Shown piece after piece: positions 1 through 47,833 of a DNA stretch of 64,000 nt (the stretch's first letter is position 1; each line of letters starts with the position of its first letter). Source of the stretch: an uncultured bacterium (lineage in GTDB: Bacteria > Verrucomicrobiota > Kiritimatiellia > CAIKKV01 > CAITUY01). The stretch covers positions 11,314-75,313 of the forward strand of contig CAIVSY010000041.1 of the NCBI GenBank assembly GCA_903908715.1, in the 5' to 3' direction. Both the position numbers and the translations under genes were made by a program. Under the pieces are notes generated by a model. The model made no database searches. It saw nothing but the letters and a program-made list of their open reading frames with translations, and was not told where the DNA came from.

Positions 1-2
1 CC

Positions 3-2254: not shown

Positions 2255-3423
2255 CCGCTGCCACCCTCCATCCATCCAGGCCGATCACCGGTATCCGTTA
2301 TGTCTCCCTCTGGGAGGCCAGCGGTTATTCCGAAGTGGCCAGGCGGCAGATCCTCGGACTCCATCGGGCCGGCGTGCCCGTGAACTGGACTCCCATGCGG
2401 CGCGGCTCGCTCCAGCACGGCCGGTACGCCCCGGTACCATCCGCCCTCGTGAAGGATCCGGATCTGGAACCGGTGTGCAATGCGCCGGTCGATTACAACT
2501 GGACCCTTGTACATACCGTCCCGGAATACTTCCCCGCATGGGTCCTCGAACCCGGCCGCGGGCATACCGGCGGGATCACCGTCTGGGAAACCGACCGCCT
2601 GCCCCACACCTGGCCCTCCCTCCTGAACCGGATGGACCGGATCTTTGTCCCCTGCCGTTTCAATCGCGACCTGTTTGCCCGCGACGGCGTCCGTAAACCG
2701 ATCCATCTTCTGCCCTACATCCCGCGTTCGGAACCGCTCCCGCCCCGCCGCGACCTCCCCGGCGTACCCGCCTCCCACTTTGTCTTCTACACGATCAACA
2801 CCTGGACCGCCCGCAAGGCGATCTGGCTGACTCTGCAGGCCTACCTGAAGACCTTCACAGCCCGCGATCCCGTTACCCTCGTCATCAAGACCACCGGAAA
2901 CGATCTGACCCGGCCTCGCCTTGTGGAAGGCTGGTATCATTCCACACGGCAGGCCGTACGGAAGCTTCTGCGCCAATACCCTGATCCCGCCGCCGTGGTC
3001 CTGATCGACCGCGAGGTGCCGGCCGCGGACATCCTGGCCCTGCACGCACGCGGGGACTGCTATTTTTCTCTGACCCGTTCCGAGGGATGGGGCATGGGCG
3101 CCTTCGACGCCGCCTCGTGGGGAATCCCTGTGATCATCACAGGTTTCGGCGGCCAGCTGGATTTCCTCCAGCCAGACGCCCCCGGCCTGGTCCGCCACAC
3201 CCTTGTGCCCGTGGATGACCCCATGGGCTATCCGTCCTTTGCGCCCGACCAGAACTGGGCCGAGCCATCGCTCGACCATGCGTCGCAACTCCTGCGGGCG
3301 ATCCTTGAGGATCCGGAGCGGGCCCGGGCCAGCGCCACCCCGATCCGGGAGTTTATCCGCGAGAACTTCAACGAGAAGCAAGTGACCGGGACCCTGATCC
3401 GCAATCTGGAAGGCCGCCCATGA
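2251..3423 (+). CDS. Glycosyltransferase family 4 (GT1-fold)
   Basis: Start Met33 of ORF 2155..3423 overlaps the upstream stop (ATGA). C-terminal GT4 motif SEGWGMGAFDAASWGIPVIITGFGG. Confidence 0.75.
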   Translation: MTAATLHPSRPITGIRYVSLWEASGYSEVARRQILGLHRAGVPVNWTPMRRGSLQHGRYAPVPSALVKDPDLEPVCNAPVDYNWTLVHTVPEYFPAWVLEPGRGHTGGITVWETDRLPHTWPSLLNRMDRIFVPCRFNRDLFARDGVRKPIHLLPYIPRSEPLPPRRDLPGVPASHFVFYTINTWTARKAIWLTLQAYLKTFTARDPVTLVIKTTGNDLTRPRLVEGWYHSTRQAVRKLLRQYPDPAAVVLIDREVPAADILALHARGDCYFSLTRSEGWGMGAFDAASWGIPVIITGFGGQLDFLQPDAPGLVRHTLVPVDDPMGYPSFAPDQNWAEPSLDHASQLLRAILEDPERARASATPIREFIRENFNEKQVTGTLIRNLEGRP

Positions 3424-4352
3424 ATACCCCGATCCCCAGACAATTCCACTTCGTCTACGGCCTTCGCCCGCAGGACCGGCCCTTCCCCCTGATGCATTAC
3501 CTCTGCCTGGAATCCTGCGCAAGGATCAACCGGCCGGACCGCATCTTCCTGCACTGTCATCACGAACCCTATGGCGTCTACTGGGACCTGATCCGCCCCC
3601 GGCTGCATATCCGGCGTGTTCCGCTCAACGCCTTTGTCAGCGGCTACCAGTACAAGGATCCCTCCCTCGCACGGTACCGGTATGCCCACCAGTCGGACTT
3701 CATCCGCATGGAGGCCCTGCTGGAACATGGCGGGATCTATGCCGATATCGACACCCTGTTCGTACATCCCCTGCCCGAGCGCCTGTTTGCCCACCCTTGC
3801 GTGCTCGGCCGCGAAGGCGATGTCACCGATGCTCCCGGCACGCCGCCCCGGCCCTCGTTGTGCAATGCCTTCATCATGGCTGTCCCGCAGTCCGCCTTCC
3901 TTCGTCAGTGGTACGAGGAACTGGGTACGGCTTTTGACGGCTCATGGAGCCAGCATTCCACCGCGCTCCCCTGGACACTCAGCCGCCGATACCCCGATTG
4001 GGTCCATGTCGAACCCATGCGCAGTTTCTACAAGTACCAGTGGACCCGGGAGGACCTGCATCGCCTGCTGGAAGCGGCCGAAGATCAGGAGCCCGATGTG
4101 TTCAGCATCCATCTCTGGGCCCATTTGTGGGAATCCCGCGGGCGGCGTGACTATTCCCGTTTCCATTCCGCCCTGATCACGGAGCGAAGAGTCCGGACGG
4201 TGGATTCAACCTACAACCGGATTGCCCGCCGGGCTCTTCCCCCGCCCGCCCTCCTGCGTCCCTTGCGGTATGCCGCCTCCTGGTGGCTGGCCGCCCTGCG
4301 GATTGCCATCCGGAAGAAACTTCCCGCAACGGCAAAGAGAACTCCATCATGA
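3420..4352 (+). CDS. Glycosyltransferase, GT32-like (Gly_transf_sug DXD family)
   Basis: DFIRMEALLEHGGIYADIDTLF resembles the Gly_transf_sug/Och1-like DXD region. ATGA overlap with the upstream gene. Confidence 0.6.
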   Translation: MNTPIPRQFHFVYGLRPQDRPFPLMHYLCLESCARINRPDRIFLHCHHEPYGVYWDLIRPRLHIRRVPLNAFVSGYQYKDPSLARYRYAHQSDFIRMEALLEHGGIYADIDTLFVHPLPERLFAHPCVLGREGDVTDAPGTPPRPSLCNAFIMAVPQSAFLRQWYEELGTAFDGSWSQHSTALPWTLSRRYPDWVHVEPMRSFYKYQWTREDLHRLLEAAEDQEPDVFSIHLWAHLWESRGRRDYSRFHSALITERRVRTVDSTYNRIARRALPPPALLRPLRYAASWWLAALRIAIRKKLPATAKRTPS

Positions 4353-5584
4353 AGCCGCGCCTGCTGTTCCTGTCGCCCGTCACACCCGCCCCGTCCGGCA
4401 ATGGCCGGGCCATGCGGGCCAACCGGATGCTGACCGCTCTGGCCAGCCGTTTCGAGGTCTCGCTGCTGATCCTGGAGTCACGCCTGACAACCGCACCCGA
4501 CTTCACAACCCTGCGCGAACGGACTGGAGAGATTGTCTTCCTTCCGCCGGAAACAGGGTCGACACCGGTCCAGCGCTTCCGCCGTGCGGTCCTGCGCCGG
4601 ATCCCCTCGCTCTACAGTCTCCTTTTCGGACAACTCCCCGAATGGGCGCCGATTACCCCGCTGCGCCTGGCCCTGGCGGCCGATGCCTTTCCGGGCAAAT
4701 CGTTTGATGCCCTCCACGTATTCCGGTTGCACCTTGCGCCCTATGCCCAGACATGGCTCGACCGACGCGGACGGCCCGCACAGGTCAACCTCGACCTCGA
4801 TGACATCGAATCCGTGACCCGCCGGAGGATCGCCGAGCTGTACCGCATGAATCACCAGCCCTTGCGTGCGCTGGCGAAGAGACGGGAGGCGGAACAACTG
4901 CGGGATCTCGAGAGGCGTTGGCTCCACCGATTCGACCGGGTCTGGGTCTGCTCCGAAACCGACGCCGCACTCCTGCGAAAGACGATCCCCGGCATCCGCA
5001 CCGCCGTCGCGCCCAATGTGGTTTCCATTCCGCCGTCCCGCCCCCCTGCGCCTGTCGCCACTTCTCCCTTCCGCTTCCTTTTCGTCGGAACCCTGGGTTA
5101 CTACCCGAACCAGGACGGTATCCTCTGGCTCGCGCGCGAGGTTCTGCCGCGCCTTCGCCAACAGGCCGATCGTCCCTTCCTTGTCGTTGTCGCCGGAGCC
5201 GGCCTGCCCGGATGGGCGGCCCGCCAACTCCGGCAGGAACCGGAAATCGAGTTCTGCGGTTTTGTCCCGGACCTTTCCGGCCTGTATGCGCAAGCCCATG
5301 CGGTGCTGGTCCCCCTGCGAGCCGGGGGCGGATCCCGCATCAAGATCCTCGAAGCCTTCGCGCAGGGCGTCCCTGTGCTTTCCACCTCCATGGGCGCCGA
5401 GGGGCTGGATGTCCGGGCCGGCGTCGATCTGCTGCTTGCCGATGACGCGGGTGATTTTGCCGGCCACGCCCTGGAACTGATGCGCGATACCCCGCTGCGC
5501 GCCACGCTTTCCGGCAATGCCTTTCAACGGGTGGCCTCCACCTACAGCCCCGCCGCTCTGGCCCGGCTGATCCATGGACCCTGA
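4349..5584 (+). CDS. Glycosyltransferase family 4
   Basis: Met23 of ORF 4283..5584 (ATGA overlap). Motifs FVGTLGYYPNQDG and ILEAFAQGVPVLSTSMGAEGL (GT4 E-x7-E region). Confidence 0.8.
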   Translation: MKPRLLFLSPVTPAPSGNGRAMRANRMLTALASRFEVSLLILESRLTTAPDFTTLRERTGEIVFLPPETGSTPVQRFRRAVLRRIPSLYSLLFGQLPEWAPITPLRLALAADAFPGKSFDALHVFRLHLAPYAQTWLDRRGRPAQVNLDLDDIESVTRRRIAELYRMNHQPLRALAKRREAEQLRDLERRWLHRFDRVWVCSETDAALLRKTIPGIRTAVAPNVVSIPPSRPPAPVATSPFRFLFVGTLGYYPNQDGILWLAREVLPRLRQQADRPFLVVVAGAGLPGWAARQLRQEPEIEFCGFVPDLSGLYAQAHAVLVPLRAGGGSRIKILEAFAQGVPVLSTSMGAEGLDVRAGVDLLLADDAGDFAGHALELMRDTPLRATLSGNAFQRVASTYSPAALARLIHGP

Positions 5585-5593
5585 TGCCCGGAG

Positions 5594-6595
5594 ATGACAA
5601 CGGATGAAGAACCTGCCACAGAGGCTTCCCCGATGAACGCGGGGCGCATTTTCCGGCGATGGCGACTCCGCCTTCGCAATCGTCGTAGCACGGGCGGGGA
5701 TCCCCGGGGCCGCGTCCGGATCGTCTTCGCCAACGGTTGCTTCGACCAGCCGCTGAGTCTGGAGCAACAGCCGGTCACGCCCGGCGTCCGACTGAGCGGG
5801 AATCCGCGGGAAGCCGCAACGGCCGATGCCGTCGTCTTTCATATCCCCAACCTGCGGACTCCGATGCCGGCCAAGACACCCGGCCAGCTCTGGGTGGCCT
5901 GGTCCATGGAATGCGAGGCCCACTATCCGCTTCTGGCCGATCCGGACTTCATGAGCCAGTTCGACCTGACCATGACCTACCGCCGCGATTCCGATATTCC
6001 CCTGTCGTACATCGCCGGAGACTACGACGGGATCCTCGAACTTCTGCGTCGTCCGGCGCCGCCGAAACACCCGGGCCATGTGGCCGCCTCGATTGTATCC
6101 GGACGCTTTGATGCCTGCGGCCGCAGGCAATACCTGACCCGGTTGTCGGCCCGGATGCCGGTCCACACGTACGGGAGGCAGGGCACCCATCGCATGCCTT
6201 CACCGGACCGGGGACAACTGACCAAGCGCGAAGTGCTGGCCTACTACAAGTTCAACTGCGCTTTCGAGAATGCCATCGCCACGGACTACGTGACCGAAAA
6301 GTTTTATGACCCCCTGTATGCGGGCTGTGTACCGGTCTACCGCGGCGCTCCCAACGTGGAGGCCTTTGTCCCCGGCGATTCTTGCTGCATCGATACCTCG
6401 CGATTCCACTCCGCCGATGATCTCGCCGGATACCTGATGGAACTCGACCGCGATGAGGCGGCCTATCGTCGTTTCCTGGACTGGAAAACCCGTCCCTTGC
6501 GGCCTGCATTCCTTGAATACCTGGAATTCAGTACCCGCGGGCCGCGGCCCATCGAACGACTGGCACGCGCCGTACAAGCCCGTCGCATCACCTGA
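5594..6595 (+). CDS. Glycosyltransferase family 10 (alpha-1,3-fucosyltransferase-like)
   Basis: YKFNCAFENAIATDYVTEKFYDPLYAGCVPVYRG matches the conserved GT10 FucT motif (Y-F-L-FENS-DYVTEK). Confidence 0.75.
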   Translation: MTTDEEPATEASPMNAGRIFRRWRLRLRNRRSTGGDPRGRVRIVFANGCFDQPLSLEQQPVTPGVRLSGNPREAATADAVVFHIPNLRTPMPAKTPGQLWVAWSMECEAHYPLLADPDFMSQFDLTMTYRRDSDIPLSYIAGDYDGILELLRRPAPPKHPGHVAASIVSGRFDACGRRQYLTRLSARMPVHTYGRQGTHRMPSPDRGQLTKREVLAYYKFNCAFENAIATDYVTEKFYDPLYAGCVPVYRGAPNVEAFVPGDSCCIDTSRFHSADDLAGYLMELDRDEAAYRRFLDWKTRPLRPAFLEYLEFSTRGPRPIERLARAVQARRIT

Positions 6596-6604
6596 ATCTT
6601 CCAC

Positions 6605-6997
6605 TCAAAGGCTCACGGTCGACAGATTCAACAATTTGTTGCTTGTGCAAAGGTCAAGAACATCCACCAGCTGCTCGTGTGTGGAATCCGGGGCGCATTT
6701 GACCAGGACCGTTTGCGTGGCACTGGCCTTGGCAATCCTCTGAACCAATAATTGTAGCGTGGAAAAGGGAACAGCCCTGTCATTCAAGGTAAAACCATCC
6801 GTATAGATGCCAATTTGCAGCACAGGGACCGCATTCGTCACGGGCCCTTCAGGAGCCGATGGCCGGTTGACCGTCAGTTGCGCCAGTATATCCTCCGGCT
6901 TCAGGGTGATGAGGAAGAAGATCAGCAACTGGAACACACAGTCAATCATAGGGGTCATGTCCAATTGCGGCTCGCTATTCCGGCTTCTGGCAGGCAT
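6605..6997 (-). CDS. exbD: ExbD/TolR family biopolymer transport protein (orphan)
   Basis: N-terminal MTPMIDCVFQLLIFFLIT TM motif typical of ExbD/TolR. No adjacent ExbB/TolQ. Confidence 0.7.
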   Translation of the reverse strand: MPARSRNSEPQLDMTPMIDCVFQLLIFFLITLKPEDILAQLTVNRPSAPEGPVTNAVPVLQIGIYTDGFTLNDRAVPFSTLQLLVQRIAKASATQTVLVKCAPDSTHEQLVDVLDLCTSNKLLNLSTVSL

Positions 6998-7312
6998 ATG
7001 GCCTCCTTTCGGCGGTTACCGGGAACTCACCTCCCGCACACCACCTCTTTAAAGCCTATTACCGGCTGACGCCGAAATATTACAGCCACTTCGGGCTAAC
7101 ACCCTTCCTGGCGTTTCAGCCTGCGCACCTACCCTTTTTTCCGGTCCTGTTGCTCGCAACAGGTCTTCTCGCCGCTCCCGTGATGATACTTGCGGCAGGC
7201 TTCACAGTCACCATGGCGCGGGCAACCCGGCCACGTGCAGGGACATTCCTTCTTCTGATTCTCCATCACACACCTGCCCTTTCCTTCTCGTTGCGTACGG
7301 CAACCGCGCCCT

Positions 7313-8053
7313 TCAATAGGTATCCGGCTGTCCGAGCCGCTTTTCCAGCGCATCCCCGTGCTGAGCGAGAGAGACAAGCGACTTTGCCAGCGCGTCCGGC
7401 TGGAGCGTCGCCCTGCAATGCGTGGCCACCAGGGCAAAACAGAGGGTATCCTCCACCAGGGCCAGCGCAACCGCGCCGTAGGCAAGGGACATATTAAGCT
7501 TGAGCACGGACTCGTAGTGTTCCGGCTTCGCCGCGCCGCAGGGCGTGGTCAGCTGAACCATGAAATGGCCGTCGGCATCCCGCGCGGAAAAGTCCACCCG
7601 GATACTCTGCGTCCGCCGGCCCGGCAGGTTGAGCGTTACCACAAACTCCTGCCCATCCTCTGAAACCGTTGCCGGAAGATCGAGAACCGCACGGCGCACA
7701 AGATCATGGTTCGAACCGGCAGCCGTACCAGCCCCGGCTTTCGCCTGTAAAAGCCATTCCCGCCATGCCATTCCCCTGCTGCCGAAATCCTGTCCCGTCA
7801 ACATTTTGAGCGCACTGACGACATCCGCCACATTCCGGCCCTGGTCAAGCTGGTCCAGCAAGGGAAGGATCGCCGCTTCGCCGCCGATTTCGGAAAGCAC
7901 CTTGATGGCCGCCCAGCGGACGCCTTCATCCCTGTCCTGCAGGAGCGGCACCACTACGGGGACCGCCTCTTTCCCCTGTTCGACCAGTTGATCCATGGTG
8001 GCCGCACGAGACGCGATGCGGTAAAGGCCCTGTCTTGCCAGTGAGGTTTCCAT
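7313..8053 (-). CDS. HEAT-repeat protein with YbjN-like C-terminal domain
   Basis: Internal Met (METSLARQ) of the long GC-skewed ORF 7313..8887. HEAT-like VPLLQDRDEGVRWAAIKVLSEIGGEAAILPLL. The upstream 830 aa-equivalent is Arg/Gly-rich and likely not coding. Confidence 0.45.
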   Translation of the reverse strand: METSLARQGLYRIASRAATMDQLVEQGKEAVPVVVPLLQDRDEGVRWAAIKVLSEIGGEAAILPLLDQLDQGRNVADVVSALKMLTGQDFGSRGMAWREWLLQAKAGAGTAAGSNHDLVRRAVLDLPATVSEDGQEFVVTLNLPGRRTQSIRVDFSARDADGHFMVQLTTPCGAAKPEHYESVLKLNMSLAYGAVALALVEDTLCFALVATHCRATLQPDALAKSLVSLAQHGDALEKRLGQPDTY

Positions 8054-10175: not shown

Positions 10176-10376
10176 CATATCAACAGGCAGGGTACACGGG
10201 AAAACCCTTGCAACGCAAGCCACGGCCGCTGCGAAAAGCCATCGGGCTCGCGGCGGCCAACTACCACGGAGAATGAGCCGCCGCGAGCCCGATGTTCACT
10301 TCGGATAAAGGCTTTCGCACGCAACCGGTTGGCGTCCCCGCACGCTATCCGCACGGGGAGGCCATCGGTCTGCGCG

Positions 10377-15420: not shown

Positions 15421-15494
15421 TGCCCGATGGTGTAATGGTAGCACAACAGACTCTGGATCTGTTTGTTCTGGTTCAAGTCCAGATCGGGCAACCA
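15421..15494 (+). tRNA. tRNA-Gln (anticodon CTG), CCA encoded
   Basis: Manual cloverleaf: acceptor TGCCCGA/TCGGGCA, D-arm GTGT-AATGGTA-GCAC, anticodon stem ACAGA/TCTGT with loop CTCTGGA, T-arm TCTGG-TTCAAGT-CCAGA, discriminator A plus CCA. Confidence 0.85.
15455..15491 (+). repeat. Direct repeat copy 1 (3' half of tRNA-Gln, 37-43 bp)
   Basis: GGATCTGTTTGTTCTGGTTCAAGTCCAGATCGGGCAA is identical to 16247..16283. Confidence 0.9.
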
Positions 15495-39351: not shown

Positions 39352-40722
39352 TTACAGGTGGCTCAACGGCTTGCGGCCAATCGGGTACACATTAAACCCG
39401 GTCTGGAACAAACGCTGGTGGTCCAGGCAGTTGCGCCCGTCGAACAAGAAGGCCGGCTTGCTCATCGAGTCGTAGATCTTCTGGAAATCCAGCTTCTTGT
39501 ACTCGGACCAGTCGGTCATCACGGCAATGGCATGGGCGCCTTCGGCCGCCCTGTAAGGATCCTTGTCGAACGTGACCTTGCCGGCGCAGTCCGCGAGGTC
39601 GCGGCGGGCATTGTCCAGGGCCTCCGGGTCGGTGACCACGAGGCTGGCGCGTTCTTCGATGAGCGACCGGCACACCCGGATGGCCGGGCTTTCGCGCGTG
39701 TCGCCTGTATCCGCCTTGAAAGCAAAACCGAAGACAGCGATGCGCTTACCTGCGACCGTGTTGAACATCGAGGCGATCATCTGCCGCACAAAACGGTCTT
39801 CCTGGTACTCGTTCATCCGCACGACCTGCTCCCAGTAGTCGGCCACTTCGGTGAGACCGTAATGGCGGCAGAGGTAGACGAGGTTCAGGATATCCTTCTT
39901 GAAGCAGGAGCCGCCGAATCCGACGCTTGCGTTCAGGAACTTGGGGCCGATCCGGCTATCCATCCCGATGGCGCGAGCCACTTCGGTCACATCGGCCTCG
40001 GTGCGCTCGCAAAGGGCTGAGAGGCTGTTGATCGAACTGATCCGCTGGGCCAGGAAGGCGTTGGCGGCCAGTTTCGAAAGTTCGCTCGACCACACGTTGG
40101 TGGTCAGGATGCGTTCCCGGGAAATCCAGTGGGCGTAAATCGACACCAGTTCTGCGACGGCGCGCCGCCCGCTGTCGGTCGAGTGGCCTCCGATCAGGAC
40201 GCGGTCGGGATTTTCGAGATCCTTGATGGCGGTTCCCTCCGCCAGGAACTCAGGATTGGAAAGGACCTCGAAATGGACAGTGCGTTCGCCGGAGTGCAGG
40301 ATGCGTTCCATGGCTTCGGCGGTTCGAACCGGCAGGGTGCTTTTTTCCACCACGATTTTGTCCGAGCGGGAGTGCTGCTTGATCTGGCGGGCGGTCTTTT
40401 CCCAGTACTGCAGGTCGGCGGCCATGCCGGCTCCCTGCCCGAAGGTTTTTGTGGGCGTATTGACGCTCACGAAGATGATATCCGCTTCCTCGATGCCGCG
40501 GGCAATATCGGTTGAAAAGAACAGGTTGCGGTTCAGGCACGACTTTACGACCTCGTGGAGACCGGGTTCGTAGATGGGCAATTGATCGCTTTGCCAGGCG
40601 CGGATCCGGTCGGCGTCGATATCCACCACATGGACACGGTATCCCGGGCATTTCCTGGCGATCATGGCCATGGTCGGACCGCCGACATATCCTGCACCGA
40701 TGCAAAGGATGGTTTTGCTCAT
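39352..40722 (-). CDS. ugd: UDP-glucose 6-dehydrogenase
   Basis: Start at Met40 ([17 protein letters not shown]). Catalytic GGSCFKKD. About 456 aa, the long UGDH type. Confidence 0.9.
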
Positions 40723-40869
40723 GGTTGCTGTCTTTCCTTGGGTTCGGCGGAATACTAGAGAAAACGGCAGGCTGATACAACTGGCTTCTCCTCCCTCTCT
40801 CCTGCTGTGGTTTTGGCATGCCCCGCCATCAAGAACCACCCCACCTCATCAAACTTAATTCTTTACTAT

Positions 40870-41025
40870 TTACGGCTTGTCCCCGTCAGGGGAGGTGGCG
40901 ATGGACGGAAGTTCCGACGTCAGGAACATCCGGATCCAGTTCAGATAGAAAGGCAGATGTCGTTCTTCGACCAGCTTGCGCTGGCGGACATATTCCACAA
41001 GCGACTGAAGATCAATTGGTTGCAT
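40870..41025 (-). pseudogene. Truncated tyrosine recombinase, integron-integrase-like N-terminal (SAM-like) fragment
   Basis: 51 aa from the Met preceded by AAGGAG. LVEYVRQRKLVEERHLPFYLNWIRMFL aligns with the IntI N-terminal block ([27 protein letters not shown]). A stop follows after about 50 aa and there is no catalytic domain. The track ORF 40870..41067 reads through the adjacent inverted repeat. Confidence 0.55.
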
Positions 41026-41043
41026 TGTGACTCCTTGACGTAT

Positions 41044-41145
41044 AACGAATAGCGTTTTATCCCACACATCCGGCGAAATCAGGTTGATCTGCCAATCATC
41101 TCGCCGTATCCTCGCCGGACATGGGATAAAACGCTATTCGTTGGC
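41044..41145. repeat. attI-like region: 31-bp-arm imperfect inverted repeat ending in the GTT|GGC junction
   Basis: AACGAATAGCGTTTTATCCCACACATCCGGCGA (35-nt spacer) TCGCCGGACATGGGATAAAACGCTATTCGTT-GGC. The GTTGGC core complements the GCCAAC R'' of the first cassette's attC. Confidence 0.5.
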
Positions 41146-41154
41146 AGACAGAAC

Positions 41155-41499
41155 ATGAGGATGACTGTAACCATAGCAGTCACGTTGATTGCGGCCCTCA
41201 CTGCGGGATGCGCGAGTCTGATTGTACACTGCTCAGAACCTCCGGAAGGGGAGCTGCATCCGAAGTACGTTTACTCCGGCACACAGGTCAGCGCGGAAGA
41301 GATCCGGCGCACCACAGACTATATGAACAGCCCGAGGTATGGATACGATGCGTTCGACCCGCTCTGGCCCTTTGCGTGGTTTCTCCTTGTTGTCGACTTC
41401 CCGCTGACCTTGGCGGCAGATACGCTCTTCTTGCCGTATGATGCATACATGGTAACAATTGGGGGAAGGGACCGGTACGGAGTGATTGAGGACAAATGA
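41155..41499 (+). CDS. Cassette 1: small lipoprotein (hypothetical)
   Basis: Lipobox LIAALTAGC. 114 aa. Starts 10 bp after the GTTGGC core. Confidence 0.55.
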   Translation: MRMTVTIAVTLIAALTAGCASLIVHCSEPPEGELHPKYVYSGTQVSAEEIRRTTDYMNSPRYGYDAFDPLWPFAWFLLVVDFPLTLAADTLFLPYDAYMVTIGGRDRYGVIEDK

Positions 41500-41502
41500 A
41501 CT

Positions 41503-41572
41503 GCCAACCACGCGTCGCTCCCTATTCGCCACCCGCGGACGGGTGGCTCAAGGGAGAGCGCGGACGTTAGGG
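41503..41572 (+). repeat. attC-like site 0 (R'' GCCAACC ... R' GTTAGGG)
   Basis: 70-bp imperfect palindrome directly after the cassette 1 stop. Shares ...CTCAAGGG...GACGTT... with the other sites. Confidence 0.55.
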
Positions 41573-41580
41573 ATCAGATT

Positions 41581-42750
41581 ATGAGAAGACCAGTCATGTG
41601 GAGAGACCCAACACACGGTGCGGCTATTCTCGCATGCACAATCATGATGTTTTGCGTTCCCGCTATTGCCGCTGACAGCAAGGGTCCGAGGGCCGACGAT
41701 CTATCGGCCCTCGGACCGCTGACAGTTGAGACCCTGGAGTTCCCCAACCTTGTGGACGTCAACCGACCTGAAAGCGATTCTGCAACTCCACGACCACGCC
41801 TCTTCCCCCGGCTGCGACGCGGCCGAGCGCAGGCAGAGAACTTGTCTACCGGGAAGGAACGGCGCATCCCGATCAAAATGCATATCCCGGCCACAGGTGG
41901 GCCGTACCCAATCATCGTTGCCTCGCACGGTGCTGGAGGTAATTGGGATACGCACTACGCACAGGCACAGCACTTGGCGTCGCATGGCTATGCTGTATTG
42001 TGCTTGGAACATGTCGGCAGCAACACCGACCGTCTGAAGAGCGGGATACGCTTGATGGACAATCTCAACAAGATGATTCGAGATGCCAATGAGGTTCTGG
42101 GGAGACCGAAAGATGTGAGTTTTGCAATCGACCGCGCCGAGGAGTGGAACACGTCGCATGAGAAATTGCGCGGGCGCCTGAATGTCAGGCATGTTGGGGT
42201 AATGGGGCATTCCTTTGGTGCTTACACCACGATGGTCATCTGCGGCATGCGGCCGGCGCTTGATTGGATGGAACCGCCCGTTGCGCCGGGCAAAGGACTT
42301 GGGCCAGATCAGAGGGACGCTCGTGTCTCCTGCGGCGTAGCGCTTTCGCCCCAAGGCGCCGACGAACCCTTCTTCATCAATGAAAGCTTTGCTACCCTGA
42401 GCGCGCCATTAATGGGCGTTTCGGGTACGGAAGACAGGCAACAGGGCGGGCTCCCACCGGCAAATCGATACAAGGCTTTCAGCCTTTGGCCCGCAAAGCA
42501 AGGGCAGCACAAGTTCGTCTGGCTGGCCAATGCCCATCATCTGGACTTTACCGACTCCACTGGCGCAAAGCAGCAGGGCATCCGTTCCGCTAACCGTGAA
42601 GATGTTCAGCCAATTGTGAGAGCAGCCACCTTGTTGTTCTTCAATACGTATCTCAAAGCTGACACTTCAGTCGCCGGAAACCTGTCCACCAACGGCCTGC
42701 AAAAGTATCTGCGGGGGGCCGTAGATGGCGTAGAGGTGAGAAGCAGATGA
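41581..42750 (+). CDS. Cassette 2: alpha/beta hydrolase (PAF-acetylhydrolase/lipase-like), secreted
   Basis: Signal peptide. GHSFGA nucleophile elbow (GxSxG). Start codon 9 bp after R', with no promoter of its own apparent. Confidence 0.7.
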   Translation: MRRPVMWRDPTHGAAILACTIMMFCVPAIAADSKGPRADDLSALGPLTVETLEFPNLVDVNRPESDSATPRPRLFPRLRRGRAQAENLSTGKERRIPIKMHIPATGGPYPIIVASHGAGGNWDTHYAQAQHLASHGYAVLCLEHVGSNTDRLKSGIRLMDNLNKMIRDANEVLGRPKDVSFAIDRAEEWNTSHEKLRGRLNVRHVGVMGHSFGAYTTMVICGMRPALDWMEPPVAPGKGLGPDQRDARVSCGVALSPQGADEPFFINESFATLSAPLMGVSGTEDRQQGGLPPANRYKAFSLWPAKQGQHKFVWLANAHHLDFTDSTGAKQQGIRSANREDVQPIVRAATLLFFNTYLKADTSVAGNLSTNGLQKYLRGAVDGVEVRSR

Positions 42751-42785
42751 CACAACAAACGGGGAAGTTCCAAACGAAATACAAT

Positions 42786-42842
42786 CCCTAACAAGGATCC
42801 GAAGGCGACGGGTAAACCCGCGCCTTAGCTCCAGCGTTCGGC
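42786..42842 (+). repeat. attC-like site a (R'' CCCTAAC ... R' GTTCGGC)
   Basis: 57 bp. R'' is the exact reverse complement of GTTAGGG at the start of cassette 2. Inner hairpin CCGAAGGCG/CGCCTT. Confidence 0.55.
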
Positions 42843-42903
42843 ATGAATTCAATCAGAAATTATAGGGCTTGATGCGTATACCGTTATCGTATACATTATA
42901 GCC

Positions 42904-43203
42904 ATGATCGAGCTGATAACCATGCCGGATTTTGAGGGGTTCGATTGGTCCGGAGGCAATGCCGAGAAGAATTGGGACAGGCATAAGGTCTCGCCACTGG
43001 AAGCGGAACAGGTGTTCTTTAATTCGCCACTTCTGGCCGGAGAAGATGCCGCACACTCTCAGCATGAGAGGCGTTTGTTTGCTCTCGGGCAGACGGATGA
43101 GGGTCGCGAATTGTTTATTGCGTTTACGGTTCGCGGTCGAAAATTGCGGATTGTGTCGGCACGGGATATGAGCCGGAAGGAACGAAAGGTTTACCAATCA
43201 TGA
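42904..43203 (+). CDS. brnT: Cassette 3: BrnT-family (DUF497) toxin
   Basis: GGNAEKNWDRHKVSPLEAEQVF matches the BrnT ribonuclease toxin family. Upstream operator with two GTATAC palindromes. Confidence 0.75.
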   Translation: MIELITMPDFEGFDWSGGNAEKNWDRHKVSPLEAEQVFFNSPLLAGEDAAHSQHERRLFALGQTDEGRELFIAFTVRGRKLRIVSARDMSRKERKVYQS

Positions 43204-43484
43204 AGAAGCAGATTCCATCATTCAAGAGTGAGGATTCCGAAAGGGAGTTTTGGGCGGATCATGATTCCACCGATTATGTTGATTGGTCCAAGGCTAAGCG
43301 GGTGGTTTTCCCGAATTTGAAGCCTTCCACCAAAACCATCTCATTGCGTCTTCCGGAATCCATTATTGCCGCACTTAAAGTCTTGGCCAACAAGCGTGAT
43401 GTGCCTTACCAGTCACTGCTTAAAGTGTTCTTGGCCGAAAAGGTCGAGGCCGAACTGCGTCATGGTCATGCCAAGACAGCATGA
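43200..43484 (+). CDS. brnA: Cassette 3: BrnA antitoxin (CopG/RHH-like)
   Basis: ATGA overlap with brnT. EREFWADHDSTDYVDWSKAKRVVFPNLKPSTKTISLRLPESI is the characteristic BrnA motif. Confidence 0.75.
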   Translation: MKKQIPSFKSEDSEREFWADHDSTDYVDWSKAKRVVFPNLKPSTKTISLRLPESIIAALKVLANKRDVPYQSLLKVFLAEKVEAELRHGHAKTA

Positions 43485-43548
43485 GCCGAACCAGCCCTCC
43501 GCGCGCGACGGCGCTCCCGCGCCGCGGTTCAAGGGCAACGTGTTCGGC
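43485..43548 (+). repeat. attC-like site b (R'' GCCGAAC ... R' GTTCGGC)
   Basis: 64 bp. R'' is the exact reverse complement of the cassette 3 start core. Shares CCAGCCCTCCG.GCGCGACG and CAAGGGCAACGT with site f. Confidence 0.6.
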
Positions 43549-43610
43549 TTCGCAAATAGTGATTGATTCAACACATAAGAATGTGTGACTGTATGTGTGG
43601 AGGAAATCGT

Positions 43611-43811
43611 ATGGCGACAAATCTACAACTCGACGATAAATTGATTAAGCAGGCTGTTACGCTTGGGGGGCACCACACCAAGAGGGCTGCGGTGACGCAG
43701 GCGCTGTCTGACTATATCCGCAATCTGCAACAGGAGAGAATTCTGGATCTGTTCGGGAAGGTTGATTTCGCCCCTGAATATGACCACAAGAGACAGCGGG
43801 CGAAAGCATGA
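43611..43811 (+). CDS. vapB: Cassette 4: VapB-family antitoxin
   Basis: Met17 after GGAGGA. 66 aa. The upstream operator is an ACACAT/ATGTGT inverted repeat. Confidence 0.7.
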   Translation: MATNLQLDDKLIKQAVTLGGHHTKRAAVTQALSDYIRNLQQERILDLFGKVDFAPEYDHKRQRAKA

Positions 43812-44269
43812 GAGTGCTCGTCGACACCAGCGTCTGGGCACTCGCGTTGCGGCGGGCTGGTCATGTTCAGAATCCGGACGCGGATGAACTGAAACGCCTG
43901 ATTACCAGTCACTTGACTGAGATCATCGGCCCCATTCGACAAGAGTTACTCTCCGGCGTCCGGGATCAGGCACAGTTTGATCTGCTGGAAGACCGTTTGG
44001 CCTGTTTCCCGGATCGTCCGCTTCATGCCGAGGACTATGTGACGGCGGCCAAAATGTTCAACCTGTGTCGCGCAAAAGGCATCCAAGGTTCAAATACAGA
44101 CTTTCTAATCTGTGCAGTTGCCGTGCGGCATGATTTTGCCATCTTCACGACAGATGATGATTTCCGCCTCTTCGCAAAGTATCTGCCCATCGTTGTATAC
44201 GAATTCAAAACACACGCCGAACCACACCTTGTTCCGTACGGCTCGCAAGCTCGCCGCCGGAAAAAGTGA
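43808..44269 (+). CDS. vapC: Cassette 4: VapC PIN-domain toxin
   Basis: ATGA overlap. MRVLVDTSVW (PIN Asp), FLICAVAVRHDFAIFTTDDDF. Confidence 0.8.
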   Translation: MRVLVDTSVWALALRRAGHVQNPDADELKRLITSHLTEIIGPIRQELLSGVRDQAQFDLLEDRLACFPDRPLHAEDYVTAAKMFNLCRAKGIQGSNTDFLICAVAVRHDFAIFTTDDDFRLFAKYLPIVVYEFKTHAEPHLVPYGSQARRRKK

Positions 44270-44278
44270 CCGTTGTGG
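44216..44278 (+). repeat. attC-like site c (R'' GCCGAAC ... R' GTTGTGG), overlaps vapC 3' end
   Basis: 63 bp. R'' is the exact reverse complement of the cassette 4 start core. Shares CGCTCGCAAGCTCGC with site e. Confidence 0.55.
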
Positions 44279-44326
44279 ATGAGAAAATGATTGATAATGT
44301 AATAACATAGTGATTACATTGCTCTC

Positions 44327-44581
44327 ATGAAGGCGACACTGATACCGATTGGCAATTCCCGAGGGGTAAGAATACCCAAACCGTTTATCGAACAATGCGG
44401 CTTGTCTGAACAAGTCGAGATTGATGTGCGGGATCACATGATCTTGATCCACTCTCCCCGCCATCCCCGTGCAGGCTGGGATAAGGCGTTCAGCCGTATG
44501 GCTCGCCTGGGTGATGATAAATTGCTGGACTCGCAGAACACCACCACGCAGTGGGATACCGAGGAGTGGCAATGGAAGTAA
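44327..44581 (+). CDS. mazE: Cassette 5: MazE/AbrB-type antitoxin
   Basis: MKATLIPIGNSRGVRIPKPF is a SpoVT/AbrB swapped-hairpin motif. Upstream GTAATAACATAGTGATTAC operator-like palindrome. Confidence 0.8.
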   Translation: MKATLIPIGNSRGVRIPKPFIEQCGLSEQVEIDVRDHMILIHSPRHPRAGWDKAFSRMARLGDDKLLDSQNTTTQWDTEEWQWK

Positions 44582-44895
44582 ACCGGTTTGATGTCTTCCT
44601 GGTCTCCCTTGATCCGACCTTGGGCCATGAGATCAAGAAGACACGGCCTTGCGTCATCATCTCGCCTGACGAGATGAACCATCACATCGGCACTGTGATT
44701 GTTGCCCCTATGACGAGCCGGGGACGCGATTATCCCACCCGGGTGAATTGCGCATTCCAGAAAGTGAGTGGTCAGGTTGTGCTGGATCAAATCCGGACCG
44801 TTGACAAGATCAGACTGGTCAAGCGACTCGGCACTCTATCTCCTGCTGTTGCCGACCAGATGTTGTCCGTTCTAATCGAAATGTTTCAGAAATGA
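44572..44895 (+). CDS. mazF: Cassette 5: MazF/PemK-family toxin
   Basis: Met8 start overlaps the mazE stop. VFLVSLDPTLGHEIKKTRPCVIIS is the MazF/PemK signature. Confidence 0.85.
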   Translation: MEVNRFDVFLVSLDPTLGHEIKKTRPCVIISPDEMNHHIGTVIVAPMTSRGRDYPTRVNCAFQKVSGQVVLDQIRTVDKIRLVKRLGTLSPAVADQMLSVLIEMFQK

Positions 44896-44954
44896 CCCCA
44901 GCCAGGCCTCGCACGCGACGGCGAGTACGTTGCGCTTGAAGGCCGCCGTTCGCG
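44896..44954 (+). repeat. attC-like site d (R'' CCCCAGC? ... R' GTTCGCG)
   Basis: 59 bp. Shares CGCACGCGACGGCG with sites b and f. Its R'' does not complement the cassette 5 start, so it is the one exception to the pattern. Confidence 0.4.
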
Positions 44955-45025
44955 AAAGAAATGGTATTGACAGCATGATCGGAGTGCTGCAACATGTACC
45001 GAAATACGTACATGAAGGAGAGTCC

Positions 45026-45286
45026 ATGACAACACTGACTGCGACCGACGCGCGCCGAGAGTTTTTCGATGTCGTTAAGGGGGCGACCGACAAGCACCAG
45101 ATTTACCGGATACACCATCGCCGGGGCTCAGTCGTCCTGCTGGCGGAGGATGACTACGACAGCATGATTGAGACCCTGGATCTGCTCTCCACGCCTGGCT
45201 TCCGCCAAAGCATGAAGAAGTCCGTGGAGCAGATGCGCAGAGGCGAGACGGTCTCGTTCGAGGAGGTCTTCGGAGAGAAACCGTGA
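45026..45286 (+). CDS. Cassette 6: Phd/YefM-family antitoxin
   Basis: Met33 start. TATDARREFFDVV...YRIHHRRGSVVLLAEDDYDSMIETLDL is typical Phd/YefM. Operator ACATGTAC...GTACATG. Confidence 0.8.
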   Translation: MTTLTATDARREFFDVVKGATDKHQIYRIHHRRGSVVLLAEDDYDSMIETLDLLSTPGFRQSMKKSVEQMRRGETVSFEEVFGEKP

Positions 45287-45540
45287 CGCCATATGCCATC
45301 CGGTTCACCAAAGAGGCCGCAAAGGACGTCGACAAACTCCCCCCTCGTCTGAAGGAGAAGCTCAAGATTGTGCTCCGGGAACAGGTGGCACCGAACCCCC
45401 GTTGCGGAAAACGGTTGGTCGGCGACCTTGCGGGATTCTTCTGCTTGAGGCTCTCCTACAAGGACCGACTGGTCTACTCGGTGGACGACGACCGCAGGAC
45501 TATCTTCGTTCACCGGGCGAGAACCCACTACGGAGACTGA
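45283..45540 (+). CDS. Cassette 6: RelE/ParE-family toxin
   Basis: ATGA overlap. 85 aa. YRLVYSVDDDRRTIFVHRARTH is a RelE/ParE C-terminal pattern. Confidence 0.75.
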   Translation: MTPYAIRFTKEAAKDVDKLPPRLKEKLKIVLREQVAPNPRCGKRLVGDLAGFFCLRLSYKDRLVYSVDDDRRTIFVHRARTHYGD

Positions 45541-45550
45541 TGACAGGGTG

Positions 45551-45684
45551 CGCGAAACACGGCGTCCAGGATACGCTCGCAAGCTCGCGCTCCTGACGCC
45601 CCGGCAATTCTGGGACAAGGAGAGGGGCCAACAAGGCGGCGGACACGCGCCGTAACCCTGGCGGGTTCACCGCCCGTGTTGGCC
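45551..45684 (+). repeat. attC-like site(s) e (R'' CGCGAAAC ... internal GGCCAAC ... R' GTTGGCC)
   Basis: 134 bp. May be one long attC, or two attCs bracketing an empty cassette. R'' complements the cassette 6 start GTTCGCG with one extra A. Confidence 0.45.
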
Positions 45685-45748
45685 CTTACAAATGAATTGA
45701 CGATATGTACAGAACTCTGTACATTACTGTACATATCGGAGATTAACT

Positions 45749-45988
45749 ATGACAACCGTGACTCTAACCGAATTCAGAAGTCATGCATCAGGAATGCTGA
45801 GCCGGGTGGAACGTGGAGAAACGCTGCTGGTGCTCAGGCATGGTCGTCCTATTGCAGAGGTGACACCCATTGCGAGTCAGAACAAAGAGCAACCTTCGTG
45901 GAAAAGACCCGGGCTTCGCCTCTCGACAAAAGGAATAAGCCTCTCGGCAACTATTCTGGCGGAGCGTGACCATGAAAGCATTCCTTGA
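45749..45988 (+). CDS. Cassette 7: Phd/YefM-family antitoxin
   Basis: MTTVTLTEFRSHASGMLSRVERGETLLVLRHGRPIAEV. The upstream operator has three TGTACA palindromes. Confidence 0.8.
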   Translation: MTTVTLTEFRSHASGMLSRVERGETLLVLRHGRPIAEVTPIASQNKEQPSWKRPGLRLSTKGISLSATILAERDHESIP

Positions 45989-46385
45989 TTCCTCCGCTTT
46001 TGCGAAGCGTTTTGTCGAAGAAAACGGGAGCGATGGCGTCGAGGTCATTTGCGCCCAGGCAACGGAACTCGGGCTGAGTGTGATCTGTGTGCCCGAGATT
46101 GTTTCCGCACTGAACCGCCGCCGCCGCGAACACACGCTGACCCGTGAGCAGTATCATGTCGCCAAAAAGCGATTGCTTGATGATGTCCGCGACGCGGACA
46201 TCATTTTCCTCACTCCGACTGTGATCGGGTCAGCCATCCTGATCCTTGAGGCAAGTCCCGTCCGAGCGATGGATGCCCTGCATGTTGCTTGTGCGCTTGA
46301 ATGGGGGGCGGAGCTGTTTGCCTCAGCCGACAAGCAGCAACTCCAGGCGGCAAGACGAGCTGGAATGAAAACCAGGCAGATATAA
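45972..46385 (+). CDS. vapC: Cassette 7: VapC PIN-domain toxin
   Basis: MKAFLDSSAF (PIN Asp) and MDALHVACALEWGAELFASAD. Start overlaps the antitoxin 3' end. Confidence 0.8.
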   Translation: MKAFLDSSAFAKRFVEENGSDGVEVICAQATELGLSVICVPEIVSALNRRRREHTLTREQYHVAKKRLLDDVRDADIIFLTPTVIGSAILILEASPVRAMDALHVACALEWGAELFASADKQQLQAARRAGMKTRQI

Positions 46386-46387
46386 AC

Positions 46388-46434
46388 GGCCACCAGCCCT
46401 CCGAGCGCGACGCCGCTCAAGGGCAACGTTGTGC
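46388..46434 (+). repeat. attC-like site f (R'' GGCCACC ... R' GTTGTGC)
   Basis: 47 bp, a shortened homologue of site b. R'' complements the cassette 7 start GTTGGCC with one mismatch. Confidence 0.5.
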
Positions 46435-46438
46435 AGGG

Positions 46439-46774
46439 ATGGAGAGAATGATGACGACCCCAAAACGATACGGAATTATCGGGGCAGTTTCAGTGACGCT
46501 CATTCTTGGATCAATGGTCGTCATCCGGACAATGCTTCCGTGCGATTCATTCATGTACGCTGCGCTTCAGAAGGTCTTCTGGGTTCCGACCATTCCCCTC
46601 TTCTGGGTCATGGAGAAAGTCATGGAGGGATGTGGCCTTCATGGGGAAGAAGGAATGAAGTACCTCCTGCCCATGTTCGCAACCATGCTGGCATACTGGG
46701 CGGCACTCGGATTCCTGATTGGGTTTGTGATTTGCAAGACGAGGGGAAGATGGAAGGGCACAACCACGGCCTGA
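46439..46774 (+). CDS. Cassette 8: small membrane protein (hypothetical)
   Basis: Met47 of ORF 46301..46774. Three predicted TM helices. No family. Confidence 0.45.
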   Translation: MERMMTTPKRYGIIGAVSVTLILGSMVVIRTMLPCDSFMYAALQKVFWVPTIPLFWVMEKVMEGCGLHGEEGMKYLLPMFATMLAYWAALGFLIGFVICKTRGRWKGTTTA

Positions 46775-46820
46775 ACCCTGCCGTTGCCCCGCGTGGACGC
46801 GGGACAACGTCTTGTTGGGC
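46758..46820 (+). repeat. attC-like site g (R'' GCACAAC ... R' GTTGGGC), overlaps ORF 3' end
   Basis: 63 bp. R'' is the exact reverse complement of the cassette 8 start GTTGTGC. Architecture parallels site c (GCCGAACCACACC vs GCACAACCACGGCC). Confidence 0.55.
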
Positions 46821-46842
46821 CGGACGCTGGTGCTCGGATGAA

Positions 46843-46986
46843 ATGAAGGCAATACGCAAACTGCTCTATTGGACGAACGTCGCGCTCCTGCTCACATGCG
46901 CGGTTGTCTTTGCATGGACACGCGTAGCGATCCTTCTGATCAAGTCGTCGGAGGGGCGGTGTATGGATTTAGCAGGCCGGGACTGA
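46843..46986 (+). CDS. Cassette 9?: 47-aa hydrophobic peptide (hypothetical)
   Basis: MKAIRKLLYWTNVALLLTCAVVFAWTRVAILLI. Single TM. No downstream attC found. Confidence 0.25.
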   Translation: MKAIRKLLYWTNVALLLTCAVVFAWTRVAILLIKSSEGRCMDLAGRD

Positions 46987-47287
46987 CGGGTGGCGGGGTT
47001 TGAGGGCGGCGTTGGCGGGATGAAGGAAGGCGGCGGGCGTGGGTTTTGGCGGAGGCGGCTCGCATCGGAGCCGGATAGGCGGGATGAGGGCGGTTAGTTA
47101 CTGTTTATTATCTGACCCCGCGTGTAAAACGGCTTTCTGATAAAACAGGCTTCTCCGCCCTCCATTCCTTCGGTGGTCTCGGCATGCCCCGTAATCACAA
47201 AACCACCCTGCCGGATCATGTGATTCATCCTTGATTCAGTCAGGGCCTTGCGTATGATTCTTCATGGAAACAAAAAGGAGTTTTCCC

Positions 47288-47833
47288 ATGAAGCGTTTTC
47301 TGACTGTCCTGGTTGCGGTATGTACGGCTTGCTGCCTGCAGGCGGCCAATCCGAACGCGGCCAAGGAGGTTTCCTTTTCGCTCCTGAAGACCGCACCGGA
47401 GAAACACAAAGGCCGGCTGGTCACCTATTCCGAGGTGTTCCGTGATTTCGCCAACACGTTCCCGCCTTATATGGAAATGGCGGGTTTTAAATCCACCCGT
47501 TGGCTCTTGTTGACGATCGGCGACCTGAAACTGCCGGTGCTGATCAAGAAAAAGGATGATGTAACCGCCATGGTGGCGGATCTCAAGCCGGGCACCATGG
47601 TGATTGTCACCGGACGGATCCGTGAGTTCAAGGTGGATCCGAAGATGCCGGCCTACGCGAAGTACTATGTGGACGCCGATACCATTGTCCCGGTTCCCGG
47701 GGCGCCAGTCCAACCAGCCCAGCCGGTCCAGGGAATGGCCCCTGTGAGGCCACAGCCTCAACCCCAGCCGCAGCCGCAGAATGCCGTTCGGCAAGTTCCC
47801 GTGCAGAAGGGTGCCGAACCGCCCCCATTCTGA
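47288..47833 (+). CDS. Secreted hypothetical protein with PQ-repeat C-terminus
   Basis: Met9 start. Signal peptide. C-terminal PVQPAQPVQ...PQPQPQPQPQ low-complexity region. Followed by a stem plus T-run terminator-like sequence around 47845-47885. Confidence 0.55.
   Translation: MKRFLTVLVAVCTACCLQAANPNAAKEVSFSLLKTAPEKHKGRLVTYSEVFRDFANTFPPYMEMAGFKSTRWLLLTIGDLKLPVLIKKKDDVTAMVADLKPGTMVIVTGRIREFKVDPKMPAYAKYYVDADTIVPVPGAPVQPAQPVQGMAPVRPQPQPQPQPQNAVRQVPVQKGAEPPPF

Follow-up and report, generated by a model that had tools for sequence, protein, structure and literature searches.

A probable decayed integron fragment, with an integrase stub and a toxin–antitoxin-rich cassette array, in a Verrucomicrobiota genome

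Sedentary chromosomal integrons typically have cassette arrays rich in toxin–antitoxin (TA) pairs. When a cassette integrates, the final six bases of its R' box come to stand at its start, and the R'' box that closes a cassette should therefore be the reverse complement of the R' box that opens it. Clusters of attC sites lacking an integron integrase (CALINs) were defined with IntegronFinder in a survey that lists Verrucomicrobia among the phyla known to carry integrons, and that found recognisable intI pseudogenes near 15 of 279 CALINs, using C-terminal profiles for the screen (Cury et al. 2016, PMC4889954). A clade of integron integrases (IntI) some 120 amino acids (aa) longer, interpreted as a 'gene fusion', has also been described (Nemergut et al. 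2008, PMC2426708). Here we analyse a 64-kb stretch (‘the window’) of contig CAIVSY010000041.1, from an uncultured member of the Verrucomicrobiota, in which a 6.3-kb island lies between two housekeeping genes (coordinates of all features are collected in Table 1). We consider it very probable that this island is an inserted, decayed fragment of a chromosomal integron—an intI stub plus a cassette array, in other words a CALIN—that is no longer able to rearrange itself.

We favour this reading because three independent lines of evidence agree: the clade to which the integrase stub belongs passes the integron-integrase profile TIGR02249, the sites between the cassettes match an attC covariance model (R1), and successive cassettes follow the ‘chain rule’ of box complementarity given above. 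A first-pass annotation of the same DNA, made from the sequence alone, had proposed a degenerate integron or CALIN with an inactivated integrase, and all three lines support that proposal. Seven sites match R1 at E<0.05; they lie 0.5–1.2 kb apart, all on the plus strand and with no functional intI nearby, as in a CALIN—a call that rests here on the covariance models R1 and R2 described below.

Starting at its left-hand end, the island begins inside intI. A minus-strand open reading frame (ORF; 40870–41067), of 65 aa from a GTG or 51 aa from the ATG at 41025, is divergent from the plus-strand array, as first annotated, and proves to be homologous to integron integrases over residues 1–46/47; past codon 46 the frame runs through non-homologous junction codons to its stop (40870–40872). 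A phmmer search of 1.84 billion representative proteins gives 28 matches at E<=1e-3, all of them to target residues 1–47, and the stub aligns with its relatives at 38–56% identity. In agreement with this, tblastn with the full-length IntI of four comparison contigs (L013, L014, L017 and L018) places their residues 1–46 at 41025->40888 (E 1e-8 to 4e-14), and finds no further piece of intI anywhere in the window.

The longer phmmer targets carry PF13495 and PF00589, with the hallmarks DPRSGVVRRHH and ...TTMIYTHV...SPLDEL, and the best NCBIfam family of the stub homologues is TIGR02249. Scanning metagenomes with an alignment of the N-terminal region yields 28 loci, several of which encode full-length proteins of 418–469 aa; against a curated whole-protein cut-off of 265 bits, the TIGR02249 scores are 392.6 (L013), 389.5 (L014), 408.2 (L017) and 382.1 bits (L018). 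The profile begins only at residue ~107–157 of these proteins, which are thus predicted to be integron integrases with an extra N-terminal domain of ~105–155 aa. Pfam leaves this domain unannotated; profile–profile comparison (hhalign) with SAM-like domains gives 92% probability and E 6e-7, and so identifies it as a putative second SAM-like domain. The original assignment of the ORF to the N-terminal SAM-like block of IntI therefore stands as regards homology to IntI (phmmer, tblastn), though not as regards the canonical block: the segment appears to belong to the second SAM-like domain, specific to the long clade.

With just 46 codons, and without any of the catalytic regions, the stub is far from an intact intI as recognised by TIGR02249 / intI_Cterm. 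Searches of Pfam, NCBIfam and PDB sequences with the 65-aa ORF return nothing relevant, because the match sits in an N-terminal extension that lies outside those profiles; taken by themselves, such searches would have led us to reject the integrase claim wrongly. A word-indexed homology search with the ORF returns its own protein alone, and tblastn with IntI1 against the window gives no match because IntI1 is without the extension. With IntI1 and the long IntI as tblastn queries, we find no intact intI homologue within the 64 kb, the part covered here of the genome-wide search recommended in the first-pass annotation.

The chain rule supplies the second line of evidence. Comparing the R'' box of each site with the R' box of the site before it, 31 of 32 outer bases (4 nucleotides (nt) at each of eight junctions) are reverse-complement matches, and five junctions are exact over 7 nt. 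Only 2 of 40,320 orderings of the sites reach that score, these being the true order and a trivial twin in which two identical boxes are swapped; within a single hairpin, R'' and R' are far less complementary (1–4 of 4). The junction closing the MazEF cassette, where R'' reads CCCCAGC against an expected CCACAAC (5/7), roughly obeys the rule as well, so that the cassette permutation rule proposed at the outset holds along the array. Such complementarity between the R'' box and the opening GTTNNNN of each cassette would arise because IntI recombines at G|TT, and we read it as the signature of sequential G|TT recombination, for which there is no other known explanation. A plain count of GTTNNNN boxes that have their complement no more than 1.5 kb further on was uninformative, giving about 100 pairs per strand.

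The third line comes from covariance modelling. R1 was built from 14 attC-like sites near related intI in other metagenome contigs, with no window site included, and was run with filters off over both strands of the whole window. Its consensus contains 13 pairs, and the spacers separating its inner helices are 2 nt on one arm and 1 nt on the other, as in attC hairpins, whose R''-L'' arm has an extra base; RNAalifold finds compensatory changes in 10/10 pairs predicted for the training alignment. The seven best window matches (16.5–60 bits, E 2e-13 to 0.045) lie without exception on the plus strand and at cassette ends, whilst the best match outside the island reaches 12.4 bits (E 0.5) and nothing is found in three relatives that lack the island (L006, L009, L011). 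Sites of the window align with R1 over its full length (positions 1–62); we see that they form the same sequence and structure family as the sites beside intact or decayed long intI in other metagenome contigs. One of these, the 16.5-kb contig L023, is itself another decayed integron: next to a 142-aa intI pseudogene (7160–7588), its minus strand (1–7160) holds at least 10 attC sites of 48–76 nt that keep the chain rule (GTTCTGC then GCAGAAC; GTTCGCC then GGCGAAC) and have window-like loop motifs. Rfam has no attC family and gives no match in the region, and counts of AAC...GTT hairpins by energy or arm pairing were set aside as they barely separate the island from the rest of the GC-rich window.

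As a control, R1 was run on 78 kb of plasmid DNA, where it recovers 8/8 short class 1 attC sites (aadA2, dfrB1, lnu(F), aacA4 twice, aac(6')-IIc, aadA16 and blaOXA-2) and nothing else at E<0.05; their scores of 24–37 bits are similar to the 16–60 bits of the window sites under the same model. Class 1 attC also resemble the window sites in their R''-L''...L'-R' hairpin with AAC/GTT cores and in length (~57–72 nt); unlike them, the window sites are GC-rich with a loop motif of their own. A second model, R2, was built from the eight class 1 sites alone, aligned to R1; a MAFFT alignment of the same sites was structurally wrong and was discarded. R2 ranks site 3 first in the window (20.8 bits, E 0.002), site 8 second (16.1 bits, E 0.04) and site 5 fourth (E 0.41), the other window sites remaining unfound. 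We also note that the clinical lnu(F) attC (L042 4066–4123) closely resembles a site in an environmental metagenome contig, GCACAACAAAGAAATCCAGCGGACGG... of L034, that lies beside a long-type intI.

At the level of individual sites, the at least eight inter-gene palindromes of 47–134 bp first reported become ten candidate sites at the same places, the ‘134-bp’ site being two (7a and 7b). An attC site has an R'' box (RYYYAAC) at one end and an R' box (GTTRRRY) at the other. Sites 2, 3, 4, 5, 7b and 9 retain both AAC and GTT cores, which are mutated in the R'' box of site 6 (AGC), site 7a (AAAC, with R' also absent) and site 8 (ACC). Site 5 scores at the level of the R1 training sites themselves. 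Internal sequence common to several sites, another element of the first description, is confirmed by repeat families D5, D6, D7 and D9: sites 4, 6 and 8 share sequence (site 8 is 93% identical to site 4 over 27 nt), as do sites 5 and 7a, the latter having ACGCTCGCAAGCTCGC in common with both site 5 and the L023 sites. A conserved loop motif, ACGGCTCGCA(A/C)GCTCGC, and a CAACGTT before R' are likewise common to the window and L023 sites. Sites 7a and 7b lie 13 nt apart (45551–45684) and the boxes of 7b are self-complementary, so that the pair looks like an emptied or collapsed cassette. In site 9 a second AAC core, CCTGAAC (46770–46776), gives a tighter hairpin, with a central 12-bp stem; R1 scores this site at 13.9 bits on the minus strand (46770–46820) and 9.7 bits on the plus strand. 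Folding of the bottom-strand DNA supports sites 1, 2, 3, 4 and 7b (z -3.1 to -8.6), with sites 2, 3, 4 and 7b at about -3.1 to -3.4.

Site 1 stands apart from the others, and we compare it with the DNA next to intI in relatives of the stub. There, the first ~200 nt upstream of intI (L013, L014, L015/L016, L019/L020) contain several GACGTATAAC / GTTATACGTC boxes, including perfect palindromes of 18–22 nt such as GTTATACGTCATGACGTATAAC in L015, and we regard these boxes as candidate attI or regulatory binding sites. The first GACGTATAAC box adjoins the intI start in L012–L016, L019 and L020 as it does in the window, to which L014 aligns over 40889–41045. The relatives repeat the box several times in this candidate attI DNA; the window keeps the first only, and there it runs directly into the 107-nt palindrome of site 1, which replaces the further boxes, ends in GTTGGCA and occupies the expected attI position. 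Its R' is complementary to that site 2 R'' which closes cassette 1, and its DNA fold is very stable (-33.5 kcal/mol, z -8.6). We rejected site 1 as a normal attC, given the lack of a model match and a perfect 21-bp stem without bulged bases at the usual positions. The attI region of the island appears to be remodelled. Two same-species contigs stop inside the GTT of site 1 or immediately ahead of it (L004 and L005, at window 41141 and 41136), and L003/L008 end within the R'' region of attC 2 (41511); such stops of short-read contigs may reflect branching of the assembly graph at recombination sites.

Turning to the surroundings of the array, GC content is 50–57% across 40800–47600 and 60–64% on both sides. 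In L006 (a Verrucomicrobiota metagenome-assembled genome), L009 and L011, ugd lies directly beside the lipoprotein gene, about 155–165 bp away, and the encoded lipoproteins are 66–72% identical to that of the window. An imperfect direct repeat of ~83 nt, at about 80% identity, brackets the island exactly, with a local alignment score (78) that is reached by 0/2000 shuffles; its extension beyond 83 nt is not significant, and a stretch of ~50 nt present in both copies is missing in the relatives. We rejected a dispersed element, as the repeat has no other copy in the window, and a duplication of 83 nt is far too long to be the target duplication of a transposase. ORF and Pfam annotation reveal no recombinase gene in the island other than the intI stub. 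Since the island is cut inside intI on its left and inside a cassette on its right, its arrival was not by integrase-mediated cassette insertion. The absence of the array from relatives refines the first reading: it points to an insertion truncated at both ends, rather than to decay in place of a shared ancestral locus.

The array itself consists of nine cassettes and a truncated tenth, all on the plus strand, and five of them carry type II TA pairs (BrnT/CopG-type, VapB/PIN, MazE/MazF, Phd/ParE-like and Phd/PIN). Promoter-like sites precede the MazE gene (44291–44320) and the second Phd gene (45697–45725, before a start at 45749). Exact-sequence look-ups of the cassette proteins return the same species only, or nothing, and tblastn of these proteins against the related intI loci gives one distant BrnT match, with no evidence of common cassettes. 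In L007 (same species, another sample) the sequence matches the window at 100% identity right of ~47040, and left of it identity falls to only ~60%, with indels (L007 1–135 versus window 46890–47040); the breakpoint is abrupt and at the distal array end, which suggests a strain-level replacement there. Elsewhere in the window, and unrelated to the island, a tRNA gene (15421–15491) is the sole Rfam match at gathering threshold, and a GC-rich inverted repeat of ~20 bp at ~10240–10295 (CATCGGGCTCGCGGCGGC... / ...GCCGCCGCGAGCCCGATG) lies in a 156-nt stretch that folds strongly (RNA fold -74 kcal/mol, z -4.4).

Table 1. Coordinates of the island, its sites, genes and flanks, and of full-length relatives of the integrase (positions refer to the window unless a contig is named)
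Feature	Position	Strand	Evidence or remark
ugd (UDP-glucose dehydrogenase)	39352-40722	-	left flank gene
Left repeat copy (native ugd–lipoprotein intergenic DNA)	40761-40842		homologous to the single intergenic region of L006, L009, L011
Island as a whole	40843-47125		missing in three relatives (ugd abuts lipoprotein gene there); lower GC
intI remnant, codons 1-46 of long-type integron integrase	40888-41025	-	phmmer, tblastn, alignment
CTCCTTGACGTATAAC: intI ribosome-binding region and first GACGTATAAC box	41031-41046	+	relatives
Site 1, GTATAAC to GTTGGCA	41040-41146	+	107-nt palindrome, perfect 21-nt arms; 5' boundary of cassette 1
Cassette 1 ORF, DUF1375 lipoprotein, 114 aa	41155-41499	+	PF07119 E 2.4e-11
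attC 2, TGCCAAC...GTTAGGG	41502-41572	+	R1 29.8 bits, E 1.6e-5; fold z -3.2
Cassette 2 ORF, secreted alpha/beta hydrolase, 389 aa	41581-42750	+	PF03403 E 1.7e-10 and alpha/beta-hydrolase families
attC 3, CCCTAAC...GTTCGGC	42786-42842	+	R1 32.4 bits, E 3.4e-6; R2 20.8 bits, E 0.002
Cassette 3, BrnT toxin and CopG/BrnA-type antitoxin	42904-43484	+	PF04365 E 2.5e-21; PF12441 E 4.9e-34
attC 4, GCCGAAC...GTTCGGC	43485-43548	+	R1 35.6 bits, E 4.8e-7; fold z -3.4
Cassette 4, VapB antitoxin and PIN toxin	43611-44269	+	PF09957 E 5.7e-16; PF01850 E 7.3e-8
attC 5, GCCGAAC...GTTGTGG	44216-44278	+	R1 60 bits, E 2.3e-13; overlaps 3' end of PIN gene
Cassette 5, MazE and MazF/PemK	44327-44895	+	PF04014; PF02452 E 3.7e-31
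attC 6, degenerate, R'' CCCCAGC (44896-44902), R' GTTCGCG	44896-44954	+	R1 27.6 bits, E 6e-5
Cassette 6, Phd/YefM antitoxin and ParE/RelE-like toxin	45026-45540	+	PF02604 E 1.9e-11; PF15781 E 1.2e-7
attC 7a, degenerate, R'' CGCGAAAC (1-nt insertion), no R' GTT	45551-45613	+	R1 16.5 bits, E 0.045
attC 7b, GGCCAAC...GTTGGCC	45626-45684	+	fold z -3.3; R1 10.8 bits, E 1.3 (weak)
Cassette 8, Phd antitoxin and PIN toxin	45749-46385	+	PF02604 E 1.1e-8; PF01850 E 4.3e-8
attC 8, 47 nt, R'' GGCCACC, R' GTTGTGC	46388-46434	+	R1 22.8 bits, E 0.001; R2 16.1 bits, E 0.04
Cassette 9 ORF, small membrane protein, about 108 aa	46448-46774	+	no family
attC 9, GCACAAC (starts 46758)...GTTGGGC	46757-46820	+	R1 weak
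Truncated last cassette, 47-aa ORF (46843-46986) then G-rich DNA	46821-47125	+	expected closing GCCCAAC missing
Right repeat copy	47126-47209		continues into native DNA upstream of lipoprotein gene
Lipoprotein gene	47288-47833	+	right flank gene
Full-length long IntI	L013 1336-2592; L014 224-1483; L015 222-1481; L017 389-1798; L018 1615-2907		

Bringing these observations together, the cassettes would have been assembled one by one through IntI-catalysed recombination at G|TT, and the whole piece, cut inside intI and inside its last cassette, would later have landed between ugd and the lipoprotein gene by a route that did not depend on IntI and that duplicated some 83 nt of target DNA. As candidate routes we consider illegitimate and homology-facilitated recombination of imported DNA, and a block insertion of this kind seems to us the most economical reading. 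The mutated cores of sites 6, 7a and 8, one of which has also lost its R', mean that those cassettes are now fixed; sites 2–5 look intact, and an IntI encoded elsewhere in the genome could still act on them. The TA pairs, at least two of them with promoter-like sites of their own, most likely keep the array from being lost. In its fullest form—a linear piece of a foreign integron, severed at arbitrary points in intI and in its final cassette, captured in intergenic DNA without IntI, retained through the addictive TA modules that make up half of its cassettes, and recording how a CALIN can be seeded—we put this account forward only tentatively; were it to hold generally, many CALINs would turn out to be fragments of imported integrons, and not products of local decay or arrays split by insertion sequences.

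Several observations sit less easily with the integron-fragment reading. The training sites of R1 were picked with an AAC...GTT hairpin heuristic of our own, not with an established tool; the class-1-only R2 recognises 2 of about 9 sites at E<0.05; and sites 1, 7b and 9 are weak or unrecognised by the models, site 1 escaping both R1 and R2. Sites 5, 6, 7a and 8 do not fold more stably than shuffled sequences do (z +1.1 for the site 6 stretch, 44891–44954). The bottom-strand folding suggested in the first-pass annotation thus backs only part of the sites, and thermodynamic folding alone is therefore a poor test here. Divergence between the repeat copies is about 20%, as might be expected either of an old event or of a copy from a foreign donor, and the mechanism of insertion is one that we infer. 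Finally, of the comparison with relatives that had been proposed, the absence of the island and the adjacency of ugd and the lipoprotein gene were found in three, though not the expected variation in cassettes: array order is the same, at the level of gene order, in three other contigs of the same species, with no cassette turnover seen.

Part of this evidence would also suit a complete sedentary integron that resided at this position and decayed there as deletions removed both of its ends, an account that we judge rather unlikely. The divergence of the repeats and the mutated attC cores suggest age, and the ~50 nt of repeat missing in relatives indicate that the duplication arose in this or a close lineage; had the duplication once been longer, the left repeat boundary could mark the end point of a deletion. 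Set against this are the empty site in three relatives, a right end that is likewise truncated inside a cassette with no closing attC, and the fact that none of the relatives was found to carry an intact integron here. Even then, an initial insertion with at least 83 nt of target duplication would still need explaining.

We find it less likely again that the system still works, with an intact intI elsewhere in the genome acting in trans and cassettes still being exchanged. Half of all CALINs are in genomes that encode IntI elsewhere (PMC4889954), sites 2–5 are well formed (R1 30–60 bits), and both the same-species contigs that end at site 1 and attC 2 and the abrupt divergence of L007 at the distal end could reflect variation between strains; yet there is no intI in the 64-kb window, the constant cassette order just described speaks against exchange, and so do the three mutated R'' cores, one in a site also without R'. 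That the hairpins might instead be ordinary palindromes (repetitive extragenic palindromic (REP)-like repeats or terminators) in a TA island of some other mobile element, alike to attC by coincidence, is a reading already close to refuted and to which we give almost no credence: GC-rich genomes do hold many AAC...GTT hairpins, a simple count of which is barely enriched in the island, flanking direct repeats are seen for integrative islands too, and four sites fold no better than shuffles, but the chain rule (31/32; 2/40,320) is unexplained outside cassette recombination, the R1 matches are confined to the island and, within it, to a single strand, with a model that also recognises class 1 attC, and an integron-integrase stub stands in the canonical divergent position with no other recombinase gene in the island.

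As a decayed integron fragment, then, the island adds a well-documented remnant, with TA-dominated cassettes, from the poorly studied phylum Verrucomicrobiota. The stub lies in the N-terminal extension of a long IntI and is invisible to Pfam, NCBIfam and C-terminal screens of the IntegronFinder type; surveys may therefore overcount ‘CALINs without intI pseudogenes’. The comparison with empty sites, together with the target duplication, provides a concrete case that bears on how attC arrays move without an integrase, and the practical value of the work lies in annotation and in an attC model specific to the long-IntI clade.

How, then, does the locus compare with what has been described? The long IntI of Nemergut et al. 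(PMC2426708) resemble the relatives of the stub in joining a canonical IntI to an N-terminal extension (here ~105–155 aa, in proteins of 418–469 aa), and the two may be the same ‘gene fusion’ clade, the likeness to the deltaproteobacterial clade 15 of that study being one of length and extension; unlike those full-length proteins, the window keeps just 46 codons of the extension. In common with the chromosomal superintegron of Vibrio cholerae, the island has attC sites that share sequence with each other and many type II TA cassettes, at least two with promoter-like sites of their own, in a uniformly oriented array; it differs in having only about 10 cassettes and no integrase, in being truncated at both ends, in the length of its attC (47–71 nt as against about 120 nt) and, unlike a sedentary integron of the V. 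cholerae type, in being absent from related species. It corresponds to a CALIN as defined by Cury et al. (PMC4889954), in having two or more attC at spacings below 4 kb, no functional intI close by and cassettes that are for the most part unknown or accessory, although it keeps an N-terminal intI stub, unlike most CALINs and of a kind that their C-terminal profile screen would miss, and its 83-nt target duplication is not a reported CALIN feature. The element is thus of a well-known kind and leaves the understanding of integrons unchanged; it is slightly unusual in its surviving N-terminal intI stub, its truncation at both ends and its 83-nt target duplication.

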